From: an uncultured Clostridium sp.
GTDB taxonomy: Bacteria; Bacillota; Clostridia; TANB77; CAG-508
NCBI GenBank assembly: GCA_948469315.1
Contig: CAOKLQ010000009.1
Span: 11,168-75,167, forward strand
DNA length: 64,000 bases
Reading direction: 5' to 3'
Shown here: in pieces, positions 56,142 through 58,537 of the stretch
Layout of the letters: the number at the start of each line of letters is the position of its first letter
How positions within the stretch are numbered: position 1 is the stretch's first letter
Made by a program: the position numbers and the translations under genes
Notes under the pieces: generated by a model
Databases searched by the model: none
The model's input: only the letters and a program-made list of their open reading frames with translations
Told to the model about the DNA's origin: nothing

Positions 56142-56555
56142 CTATTTTAATAATTTACTCTTATAAATTTCTACTTGTTGCACCATATGCCCTATATTAC
56201 CTTCACCAGCAAATTTATTTAGTTCAAAGAAATTTTCTTCCTTGCATATCCAATATAATTTATTTAATTCTTCTACCAATTTTACATCTCTATTTAGTTT
56301 TCCTGCATAAACTTCTAATTCTATATCTGACATTTTATATTGAAAATTCATAATATGAGTTAATATAATATCATTCTTTGTTATTCCTGTTTCTTCTTGT
56401 AATTCTCTATATGCTCCCGCTAACTCATCTTCATTTGGTTCTACTTTTCCTCCTACTAAATTAAATTTACCTTTATAGGGTTCTTTTTCTCTTTTACACA
56501 TAAGTATTTTATCATTGTCTTTATTATATACTAATATTACATTTAATTTTTTCAT
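56142..56555 (-). CDS. NUDIX hydrolase (137 aa)
   Basis: The Nudix box is GGKVEPNEDELAGAYRELQEETGI. RBS GGGGG is upstream. It is the last gene of a tightly spaced four-gene operon. Confidence 0.85.
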   Translation of the reverse strand: MKKLNVILVYNKDNDKILMCKREKEPYKGKFNLVGGKVEPNEDELAGAYRELQEETGITKNDIILTHIMNFQYKMSDIELEVYAGKLNRDVKLVEELNKLYWICKEENFFELNKFAGEGNIGHMVQQVEIYKSKLLK

Positions 56556-56572
56556 ATATTTTACCCCCTAAC

Positions 56573-57034
56573 TTAAATTTCTCTTATTTCATATTTCTTT
56601 ACTTTACACTTATCATCTAAATTGAATTTTCCTTCAAATATATCGTTTTTAAATAAATATGGCGTGAATTTTTCATTCTGTTCAAATTGTTTTACTTTTT
56701 CTAAATCTTTAATGTCTATCCATTCTAGTTTTCCTTCTTCTGATTCCTTTATATTTCCTTCAAATTCTTCTGCTACAAATATGAATATAATTCCTTCATA
56801 ATCATCGTGCCAATAAGATATTCCTTGAAGTTTAGGATTAATTAAGGTTAAACCTGTTTCTTCATAATATTCTCTTAATATACAATCAAGTGGAGTTTCT
56901 CCTGATTCAAATTTTCCACCTGGTGGTGCATATACCTGTCCCCATTTTTTTGAGAATTTAATCATTAATACTTTATTATCTTTTCTTAAATAACAAACTG
57001 TTGAATTTAAATGTGCTATTCTTTGTTTTTTCAT
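56573..57034 (-). CDS. NUDIX hydrolase (153 aa)
   Basis: The Nudix box is PGGKFESGETPLDCILREYYEETGL. RBS GGAGGAG is upstream. Confidence 0.85.
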   Translation of the reverse strand: MKKQRIAHLNSTVCYLRKDNKVLMIKFSKKWGQVYAPPGGKFESGETPLDCILREYYEETGLTLINPKLQGISYWHDDYEGIIFIFVAEEFEGNIKESEEGKLEWIDIKDLEKVKQFEQNEKFTPYLFKNDIFEGKFNLDDKCKVKKYEIREI

Positions 57035-57049
57035 GATTTCTCCTCCAAA

Positions 57050-57679
57050 CTATATTTCATATTTTTTCAACTCTTCTATATATTTTTTAATACTTTCATC
57101 ATTTATATCTTCTGGAGATATTTTACAATGTTCCATTATTTGTTTTTCGATTCCTAAAGAACAATCAATTAAATGATTAGCTTTTTCTTCATTAGACCAT
57201 ACCGATGATACTATATTTTTATATCTTTTTTTAACTTCTTCTAATCTTTCCCTTAATGATGTAACTCCATATGGTGATACTCTTTGATCTGCATATAACA
57301 ATATTTTTACATCATATCTTTCTGAATTTAAAGTTTCTTCACTTCTTTTTGAACTTTTTCTGTCTATAATGTCTACTTCATAATCTTTTAATCCCTCTTC
57401 TGTAGCTATTACTAAATTTATCTTATGAGAATCTCTACCATATTTATCTATATATTGTTTTCTTATTTTTCTAAATTTCTCATCTTCTATTTCATTATCT
57501 GATATTTTAGCCATATTTCCCATATCATGTAATAAACTAGCTCTTACAATAGATTTTTTATCTATTTCTACACCATTCCAATTATCTAGTATTAAGTTAC
57601 TACATGAAGCTACTCTTAACATGTGCATTTGTAAATTTTCTGGTAGATGGTATTTATTATAAATTTCTAAAATATTCAT
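57050..57679 (-). CDS. HD-domain metal-dependent phosphohydrolase (209 aa)
   Basis: It has H...HD motifs (HMLRVASC ... SLLHDMGN). RBS GGAGA is upstream. Confidence 0.75.
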   Translation of the reverse strand: MNILEIYNKYHLPENLQMHMLRVASCSNLILDNWNGVEIDKKSIVRASLLHDMGNMAKISDNEIEDEKFRKIRKQYIDKYGRDSHKINLVIATEEGLKDYEVDIIDRKSSKRSEETLNSERYDVKILLYADQRVSPYGVTSLRERLEEVKKRYKNIVSSVWSNEEKANHLIDCSLGIEKQIMEHCKISPEDINDESIKKYIEELKKYEI

Positions 57680-57700
57680 TTTCTTTTATCTCCATTTTTA

Positions 57701-58537
57701 TTATATTTTATCTATATCAACACCTAATCTTTTAAAATTTTCATTAATTCTTGTCATATCTCTGTATTTTCCTTCTTTTATCTCAAATGTATAATTTTCC
57801 TTTTCTATATTTATATTCTCATCTTGTAATTCTTTTTCTATATTATATGGAACTCGAATAAATTGAAATGAAATCTCTGATGTATAATCTTTACTTCCAT
57901 AATCTCCTTCCATAATAAAATAATAAGCTTTTGTTGTTTCTAATACATTGCTGTCTTTAGAGTCATTTCTAATAACATCAAATGAATTTCCAACACTCCC
58001 AATATTTATTAATGTCTTATTATATATTTTATCCATATACGGATGATGAATATGCCCATATATTACAACATCTGCAACATTTTGAGTTACTGTTTTTTCA
58101 GTTGGCAAGAACATTTGATATTTTGTATCTATACTATCAACATTTAATATTGCTTTATTATTTACTTTTGGAGTTGCATGGAATAATCTGACTAAACTTC
58201 CACTCATATAAAATTCATAACAGAAAGGTAAATTTAATAGATATTTTCTATCTTCCATTGCAATTAGAGATTGATTCCATTTAATTCTTTTTTGTTCTTG
58301 TTCAAGCATATCACTGATGTTTTCATGTACTTTTGAGAAATGTTCATCACAATTTCCCTGTAATATTACATCACATTTTTCTTTTATTAAGGCTATGCAT
58401 TCTTTTGAATGAACTCCTTTAGCTATAATATCGCCTAAACATATAATTCTATCTACATTTCTTTTTTCTATATCTTTTATAGTTGATTTTAATGCTTCCA
58501 AATTACCATGTACATCTGAAATTATTGCTATTTTCAA
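57701..58537 (-). CDS. Calcineurin-like metallophosphoesterase (278 aa)
   Basis: The motifs are ISDVHGN, CLGDIIAKG, GNCD and YGHIHHP. A TTG start follows GGGGGAA. Confidence 0.8.
   Translation of the reverse strand: MKIAIISDVHGNLEALKSTIKDIEKRNVDRIICLGDIIAKGVHSKECIALIKEKCDVILQGNCDEHFSKVHENISDMLEQEQKRIKWNQSLIAMEDRKYLLNLPFCYEFYMSGSLVRLFHATPKVNNKAILNVDSIDTKYQMFLPTEKTVTQNVADVVIYGHIHHPYMDKIYNKTLINIGSVGNSFDVIRNDSKDSNVLETTKAYYFIMEGDYGSKDYTSEISFQFIRVPYNIEKELQDENINIEKENYTFEIKEGKYRDMTRINENFKRLGVDIDKI

Follow-up and report, generated by a model that had tools for sequence, protein, structure and literature searches.

We report that four phosphohydrolase genes packed into an operon-like block on an uncultured Clostridium sp. 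contig are, with a probability of about 0.55, hydrolases for nucleotide house-cleaning or signal turnover that act independently and are co-transcribed as the mosaic cargo of an integrative mobilizable element (IME). The genes occupy positions 56142-58537 on the minus strand of a 64,000-nucleotide stretch (the window; contig CAOKLQ010000009.1, positions 11,168 to 75,167, assembly GCA_948469315.1) and encode a calcineurin-like metallophosphoesterase (MPP), a stand-alone HD-domain protein (HD0) and two Nudix hydrolases. They fill the cargo slot of an IME at a tRNA-Pro gene of a low-GC gut Clostridia genome, in agreement with an earlier annotation of the window (the original prediction) that had called them mobile-element cargo. 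The dedicated four-fold system also proposed there is not one co-evolving unit; the quartet is one combination from a shuffled gene pool. The element adds a member to the IME class, its accessory cargo being a mosaic of known enzyme superfamilies; the finding is real but of an ordinary kind.

Operon anatomy and expression

The operon and its borders comprise the following features, in the order of transcription:

58563-58700, minus strand: backbone upstream region with putative promoter and 5' leader, ending at the cargo-slot boundary at ~58563 (from homology to a sister IME)
57701-58537, minus strand: first operon gene, calcineurin-like MPP of the YfcE/MJ0936/SapH type, 278 amino acids (aa) (Metallophos_2, 5.4e-20)
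57050-57679, minus strand: second operon gene, stand-alone HD-domain protein HD0, 209 aa (Pfam HD, 22.2 bits)
56573-57034, minus strand: third operon gene, MutT/MTH1-like Nudix hydrolase, 153 aa (Nudix153; Pfam NUDIX, 6.4e-16)
56142-56555, minus strand: fourth operon gene, MutT-like Nudix hydrolase, 137 aa (Nudix137; Pfam NUDIX, 4.3e-14)
55978-56000, minus strand: predicted terminator, a hairpin with T-run where the relaxase gene and the cargo operon converge (terminator scan)

Inspection of open reading frames (ORFs) and spacers gave intergenic gaps of 21, 15 and 17 nucleotides (nt), each holding a GGAG-type ribosome-binding site (RBS). Gene count, strand, positions, spacing and individual RBSs were thus as originally described, and the motifs listed at that time (DVHGN/GD/GNCD/GHIHH in the MPP, H...HD in the HD protein and two Nudix boxes) are all present, with catalytic motifs intact. 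Only the 56-60 kb interval has a negative GC skew, which fits a block of minus-strand genes.

The four genes most likely form one predicted transcription unit. Its transcript would begin in backbone sequence upstream of 58563 and end at the hairpin terminator at 55978-56000. This terminator sits within a cargo segment that is non-homologous to the sister IME, which has a different hairpin at the same position. A promoter consensus scan returned 40 sites against 38.1 ± 6.4 in shuffled sequence, with no excess, so the operon promoter is a putative assignment.

Gene-by-gene exchange of the cargo

The exact quartet was found only in near-identical copies of the window IME. In the sister IME, the backbone is 93% identical and the cargo is Nudix150-ASCH-HD-FGase, with HD as the sole common cargo gene. 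Nucleotide homology between window and sister stops at 58563 (26 nt upstream of the MPP start), reappears within the cargo only at 57051-57684 (the HD ORF plus 5 nt) and is back at 55970, the relaxase stop. These breaks delimit a cargo slot of ~2.6 kb (~55971-58562) that has been swapped gene by gene. A further copy (locus L017) shares with the window a relaxase, HD protein and both Nudix proteins at 100% identity, RepA_N at 98% and the MPP at 96%. Identity is 93-96% on the integrase side (integrase, DUF6076 protein and MPP) and 100% from HD through TnpV, and this step marks a recombination breakpoint in the MPP-HD spacer (57680-57700).

More distant relatives of the backbone, in which the DUF6076 protein is 65-81% identical, carry other cargo, of radical-SAM/Nudix type. 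One variant has a radical-SAM/SPASM gene, a TehB-type methyltransferase and a small ORF (no Nudix gene); another has a radical-SAM gene and Nudix144; and a third has Nudix151, a radical-SAM/SPASM gene, an opposed Nudix135 and an ScmC-like gene. Across the variants of this backbone, the Nudix genes (135-153 aa) are at most ~40% identical, non-orthologous, and varied in position and orientation. Loci of the same backbone family (L201-L212) hold radical-SAM/SPASM genes, small ORFs and an ScmC-like gene in the cargo slot; this set may represent peptide-modification cargo, similar to that for ribosomally synthesised and post-translationally modified peptides.

Neighbourhoods of the HD and MPP genes

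One genome per species was scanned, yielding 79 distinct loci with an HD protein at 61-91% identity. The quartet was present in none of them (0/79), and a close relative of one partner (at least 72% identical) lay within 10 kb in 6/79, always a single partner. Co-occurrence of the four genes in other genomes had been put forward as the check on a dedicated system; their absence outside near-identical IME copies, together with a sister that has HD only, speaks against one. De novo ORF clustering over the 79 loci placed 41 families in 72 slots upstream of the HD gene and 46 families in 75 slots downstream. Of the ORFs in these loci, 89% are co-directional with the HD gene; their products have a median length of 196 aa, and neighbouring ORFs are separated by a median of 47 nt. 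The pair of HD and Nudix153 genes recurs with a homologous spacer in two loci (L046 and L056), and Nudix137 orthologues (75-84% identity) are present in other arrays. A specific HD-Nudix linkage was rejected, as the adjacency of 7.4-7.5% was no higher than the local background of 4.9-5.1% (p = 0.11-0.15).

By Pfam, the gene pool from which these arrays are built contains phosphohydrolases (several Nudix and HD families, MPP, PHP, HAD, inositol monophosphatase, DUF84 NTPase/ITPase, MazG and NT5C), other small enzymes (ASCH, FGase, DUF5680, GNATs, cupins, FMN reductases, DHFR-like proteins, metallo-β-lactamases [MBLs] and serine hydrolases) and conflict-type genes (ToxN, AbiEii and Bro-N). Downstream of HD arrays in two loci (L058, 6524-8743; L095, 13475-13801), we observed a trio of uncharacterised proteins (433, 108 and 195 aa; gaps of 1-2 nt) without a PADLOC match.

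The joints between genes lie in or next to the RBS. Many HD genes end ...GAAATATAGGAG, where the TAG stop overlaps the GGAG of the next gene, and the HD stop/RBS junction TATAGGAG (L042-L116) precedes at least 8 unrelated downstream genes. A common junction before unrelated genes puts the cassette joints at the RBS, which leaves no space for an attC-like site; beyond the RBS, no flanking motif was conserved at HD joints. The arrays resemble phage morons and integron arrays in having co-directional small genes swapped singly with joints at gene boundaries, but the 15-21 nt spacers of the window contain only an RBS. An integron cassette array was rejected because these spacers hold no attC and there is no IntI. 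The element's sole integrase, located at its end, is a tyrosine integrase of phage type. Homologous exchange anchored on common genes, together with illegitimate joins, would be the likeliest mechanism.

A second survey, centred on MPP homologues, covered 67 metagenome loci after dereplication. An MPP-Nudix pair (14-nt gap; Nudix of 143-184 aa) is conserved in at least 14 of them (L121, L127, L128, L133-L135, L138, L139, L142, L143, L145-L147 and L167), in several contexts. It often has another Nudix gene before it and HD258 after it, and lies downstream of a TnpV-NikA-relaxase module. A module of the order relaxase-[HAD]-Nudix165-MPP-Nudix-HD258-[HD209]-DUF1016 was found on a different, serine-recombinase IME backbone. 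The Nudix partners of the metagenome MPPs share 31-42% identity with the window Nudix proteins, which makes them analogues and not orthologues. In two loci (L170 and L171), the product of c34, which lies between the MPP gene and a Nudix137-like gene, was considered as an HD protein that would give another MPP-HD-Nudix block and was rejected; it is a TehB-type methyltransferase.

Enzyme assignments

All four proteins are credible as metal-dependent phosphohydrolases. The MPP starts at a TTG codon behind GGGGGA, a start supported by the RBS and by homologue lengths (120 homologues listed, nearly all exactly 278 aa). Its metal-binding motifs lie at residues 8 (DVHGN), 34 (LGD), 61 (GNCD) and 161 (GHIHH). 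It scored 60.3 bits against the YfcE subfamily model TIGR00040, above the membership cutoff of 56.25, and matched Streptococcus pneumoniae SapH (Spr1479; PDB 3qfm) over nearly its full length (residues 2-238 to 13-238, E = 6.4e-12). The window protein has all metal-binding motifs of SapH, YfcE and MJ0936, although its sequence identity to SapH is low. Substrates of SapH are ATP, Ap4A and phosphodiesters. Equivalog models for ApaH and PrpE-type enzymes scored far below cutoff (19-33 bits versus 176-223), including NF001204 (32.6 bits versus 176) and TIGR00668 (19.4 versus 222.85) for ApaH. Among 2.9 million viral contigs, the MPP had a single, frameshifted match. On that contig (L120, IMG/VR, 1572-2982), the frameshifted relative adjoins a 190-aa ORF that by eye is Ham1/RdgB-type ITPase-like; a 444-aa ORF nearby may be a portal protein.

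The Nudix box (GX5EX7REUXEEXGU) is complete in both Nudix proteins (GKFESGETPLDCILREYYEETGL and GKVEPNEDELAGAYRELQEETGI), at residues 40-62 of the 153-aa protein and 36-58 of the 137-aa protein. Both score above the Pfam NUDIX cutoff, and the two are 32% identical to each other. PDB matches of Nudix153 include 2b06, 3fk9 and MTH1 (full-length), and those of Nudix137 include 3grn, E. coli MutT and NudG. Against the MutT equivalog TIGR00586, they scored 42.3 and 35.4 bits, below the cutoff of 97.9. By predicted family, both are MutT/MTH1/NudG-like only.

HD0 belongs, by its H...HD...D residues and its predicted all-helical fold, to the HD-domain phosphohydrolase superfamily, within which its subfamily is uncharacterised. 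The Pfam HD score is borderline (22.2 bits versus a cutoff of 22), residues H19, H51-D52, H85 and D131 are invariant across homologues, and the AlphaFold (AF2) model is all-helical with a pLDDT of 94.7. A sequence search of the PDB with HD0 returned no match, and the best HD-family match of the family profile against the PDB was HDDC2 (E = 0.03). Foldseek found no close structure in the PDB (best E = 0.19; TM ~0.3 to PhnZ, PDE10, HD-GYP and HDDC2) or among the viral predicted structures of BFVD (best E = 0.06). Given these weak sequence and structure matches, HD0 is placed no finer than the HD superfamily. Homologues numbered 1077 by word-indexed search and 1316 representatives (50% clustering) by full profile search; among the matches listed, the domain forms the C-terminus of ~20 giant proteins (1126-1538 aa). 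The HD family had no match in the 2.9 million viral contigs and none in PHROG.

The host element

The remaining features of the element are as follows:

52831-52906, plus strand: tRNA-Pro(TGG), integration target, whose 3' end holds the attL core (ARAGORN)
52895-52907, no strand: attL core, left 13-nt repeat (two-copy repeat; homology to independent copies ends at attL/attR)
53176-53739, plus strand: RepA_N replication-initiator-like protein, backbone (Pfam RepA_N, 5.6e-23)
53705-54154, plus strand: TnpV, backbone (Pfam TnpV, 8.7e-39)
54335-54682, plus strand: NikA/MobC-type relaxase accessory protein, backbone (NikA-like, 6.7e-19; MobC, 1.3e-7)
54801-55973, plus strand: MobA/VirD2-type relaxase, backbone (Pfam Relaxase, 1.3e-35)
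58711-58821, minus strand: 36-aa hydrophobic small ORF, backbone (sequence and translation)
58946-60067, minus strand: DUF6076 protein, marker of the IME family backbone (Pfam DUF6076, 1.9e-8)
60239-60430, plus strand: HTH_17 protein, excisionase-like (Pfam HTH_17, 3e-5)
60590-62017, plus strand: tyrosine integrase (Pfam Phage_integrase, 2.5e-23)
62121-62133, no strand: attR core, right 13-nt repeat (repeat position; homology of other copies ends there)

By its gene content and predicted att sites, the element is a 9.2-kb IME in the 3' end of tRNA-Pro. It has its own recombinase, att repeats of which one lies inside the target gene, and a mobilisation module; within its 9.2 kb there is no type IV secretion system (T4SS) and no further large ORF. 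The 13-nt direct repeat TCACCTCGACCAT is the tRNA-Pro 3' terminus (the genes for tRNA-Arg and tRNA-Pro are at 52660-52906) and has just two copies in the window, 52895-52907 and 62121-62133. Homology to five independent copies (L017-L019, L024 and L009) stops at 62132-62134. The true start of TnpV is probably an internal ATG, since its homologues have 131 aa. Among 106 DUF6076 homologues, the HTH_17 and integrase genes always adjoin.

Other metagenomes contain a whole-element copy (97.6% identical over 9.3 kb), while partial copies at 95.9% identity lie beside a different right-hand neighbour; near-identical copies have three different right-hand neighbours. Such copies in differing surroundings indicate that the element is mobile, or was recently. 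Host genomes are metagenome-assembled genomes of uncultured Clostridia from gut samples, including Candidatus Merdicola. A DNA search of plasmid and phage collections, which yielded two short weak plasmid matches and no phage match, ruled out a known plasmid or phage identity.

Both a target at a tRNA 3' end and accretion in tandem fall within the published definition of IMEs (Guedon et al. 2017, PMC5704250), and the element shares with the IMEs of Bacillota described there a tyrosine integrase, a tRNA 3'-end site with direct repeat, tandem accretion, a relaxase with accessory protein and no T4SS, and a size within 5-15 kb, with size and content varying by cargo. It differs in its backbone order (RepA_N-TnpV-NikA-relaxase-cargo-DUF6076-HTH_17-Int), which is not described in the searchable literature, where no mention of DUF6076 was found either. 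It also differs in its hosts, which are uncultured gut Clostridia, and in the cargo of its family, which consists of hydrolases or radical-SAM genes and includes no antibiotic-resistance gene.

A strong RBS precedes the 36-aa ORF (MLKIFAFLVIGLMISITINLALLCIIYIQWVNSQIK), and a long hairpin comes after it (region 58586-58875). A promoter-like site on the plus strand at 58586-58615, matching 11/12 consensus positions, is antisense to and convergent with the ORF. Together, they plausibly resemble a type I toxin-antitoxin pair, in keeping with the addiction-like neighbour noted in the original prediction.

Directly after attR, we observed a second, different element (62134-64000; RepA_N at 62367-63299), in tandem accretion at tRNA-Pro. 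One other genome (L007, GCA_022797215.1) holds the sister IME with its other cargo, then the same second element (94.5% identity), which continues to a Mob_Pre relaxase. The chromosomal flank at 38297-45856 encodes a single-module protein resembling a nonribosomal peptide synthetase (C-A-T-reductase, 1428 aa), adjoined by a histidine kinase and an HD-GYP-type (HD_5) response regulator.

Function of the cargo and alternative explanations

The operon is a mosaic in which each gene is a separate cassette from the pool of small-enzyme genes. This pool is reshuffled among IMEs and variable chromosomal regions of gut Clostridia, the joints falling within RBS spacers of 10-20 nt. As ordinary cargo, the four products would act independently and in no common pathway. 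The two MutT-like Nudix enzymes may hydrolyse (d)NTP-type substrates that are non-canonical or in surplus, the SapH/YfcE-like MPP may cleave dinucleoside polyphosphates, nucleotide phosphoanhydrides or phosphodiesters, and HD0 may remove phosphate from a nucleotide-like compound. The net effect would be nucleotide-pool house-cleaning or alarmone turnover, benefiting the host and so the element. A precedent for this type of linkage is the E. coli cluster nudF-yqiB-cpdA-yqiA, where other small hydrolases are encoded on one transcript with a Nudix pyrophosphatase and a calcineurin-like phosphodiesterase, so Nudix-MPP synteny need not mean immunity. That cluster is chromosomal, conserved and without an HD protein, whereas the window operon is mobile and shuffled; orthology of the window genes with E. 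coli nudF and cpdA was rejected, as BLASTP gave nothing significant.

Several observations weigh against this reading. In the MPP-centred metagenome loci, Nudix-box ORFs fill 22/117 slots adjacent to MPP homologues (18.8%) versus 6.2% of all ORFs there (p = 2.6e-6). In HD-locus regions, Nudix-box ORFs make up ~5% and MPP ~0.3% of ORFs, frequencies so low that chance alone would be unlikely to place an MPP and two Nudix genes around one HD gene. Nudix genes are present in 4/5 cargo variants of one backbone family, and neither Nudix protein reached any NCBIfam equivalog cutoff. Related HD arrays adjoin IetA/IetS, ToxN, AbiEii, DUF1016 (PDC-S02) and Bro-N (PDC-S13), and the variable regions around HD homologues therefore resemble defence islands. 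The large HD0 fusions that were scanned (P0359, P0374, P0407, P0450, P0433 and P0420 are fusion proteins) combine PEP-utilizers (swivel-His) and PPDK_N (ATP-grasp) domains, followed by HD0. One of them, P0407, has an extra PNP nucleosidase domain at its N-terminus, with matches to the PADLOC models "Effector PN-superfamily" (2.4e-23) and PDC-M60C. The dikinase and PNP fusions hint at a phosphorylated nucleoside-like substrate for HD0. Taken with the surveys above, the cargo has a phosphohydrolase-rich, notably Nudix-rich theme and a genuine MPP-Nudix affinity, with no fixed four-part system. In loci L001-L006, within ~600-4300 nt downstream of the HD gene, we observed that the gene order HD-inositol monophosphatase continues with IetA/IetS, a validated system (PADLOC, 2.4e-38 and 6.3e-60); other neighbours are DUF1016 (PDC-S02) and Bro-N (PDC-S13).

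These neighbours raise the question of whether the cargo is conflict related, degrading nucleotide immune messengers or NAD/ADP-ribose products (counter-defence) or depleting or modifying nucleotide pools (defence). The MPP-Nudix pair would then be the functional core and HD an accessory, and counter-defence would aid establishment of the IME or a helper element. We consider this rather unlikely. It would account for the enriched MPP-Nudix adjacency with its pair conserved across metagenome loci, the recurrence of Nudix genes on the backbone, the defence-type neighbours of HD homologues, the dikinase fusions with their one effector-like PNP domain, and MBL neighbours in HD arrays that are weakly similar to Apyc1. 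Against it, no quartet protein of the window matched a validated defence or anti-defence model in PADLOC-DB 2.0, and the window IME has no recognisable defence gene. The only defence-database models touched by the window proteins were the unvalidated candidates PDC-S07 (both Nudix proteins, ~50 bits) and PDC-S10 (MPP, 20.7 bits). In a control set of E. coli MutT, NudF and CpdA, MutT scored 130.7 bits against PDC-S07, which thus acts as a MutT model, and CpdA scored 31.7 bits against PDC-S10. Because housekeeping enzymes outscore the window proteins, these generic matches are uninformative on defence and were rejected as evidence for it. Partner genes are freely exchangeable, viral collections yielded nothing for the HD family and one frameshifted match for the MPP, and the cargo adjoins the 3' end of the relaxase gene, which on the usual oriT geometry would mean late entry into the recipient. 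The defence role suggested in the original prediction is left without a validated PADLOC model or an HD protein in viral contigs. Its remark that no described system has this composition holds, as no MPP-HD-Nudix system was found in the literature. A further version, in which a combinatorial phosphohydrolase toolkit (MPP-Nudix core plus HD0), kept by IMEs and variable regions of uncultured gut Clostridia, would neutralise nucleotide immune signals or toxins during transfer, appears distinctly improbable.

The recurrence of Nudix genes in 4/5 variants of the same IME backbone would also fit transfer or immunity factors of the element itself, backbone-like and not host-benefit cargo, by analogy with the Streptomyces integrative element pSAM2. 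As cited in PMC9513070, the Nudix protein Pif of pSAM2 is a conjugal-immunity factor (Possoz et al. 2003), and the same source documents a Nudix "exclusion system" on integrative elements. We regard this analogy as very unlikely to hold: the Nudix genes of the variants are non-orthologous and vary in position and orientation, one variant of the backbone has none, and the MPP and HD genes would go unexplained. Scarcely any weight, and slightly less again, falls on resistance or detoxification cargo acting on nucleoside or nucleotide-analogue antimicrobials or on injected nucleotide toxins, for example of the (p)ppApp type. The pool is rich in GNAT, APH, MBL, extra peptide deformylase, cytidine-deaminase-like, DHFR-like and glyoxalase genes, and resistance cargo is common on IMEs (PMC5704250), but a comparison with NCBIfam linked none of the four proteins to any known resistance determinant. 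We therefore favour house-cleaning or signal-turnover cargo.

Significance

If the ordinary-cargo reading is true, the window contains a member of an undescribed and abundant IME family (DUF6076 type, at tRNA-Pro) of uncultured gut Clostridia, in which "phosphohydrolase cassettes" are shuffled single-gene cargo. It would also call for caution against inferring multi-component systems from operon-like packing on mobile elements. The candidate models PDC-S07 and PDC-S10 cannot tell housekeeping enzymes from defence genes. Were the cargo conflict related, the MPP-Nudix pair and HD0 would represent new enzymes whose targets are immune or alarmone nucleotides; were it a combinatorial toolkit, it would be a modular new class of counter-defence cargo, built of single-gene cassettes with RBS joints and gene-precise shuffling. 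Of most interest are the shuffling at single-gene precision, the affinity between MPP and Nudix genes, and the HD0 family, which is uncharacterised.

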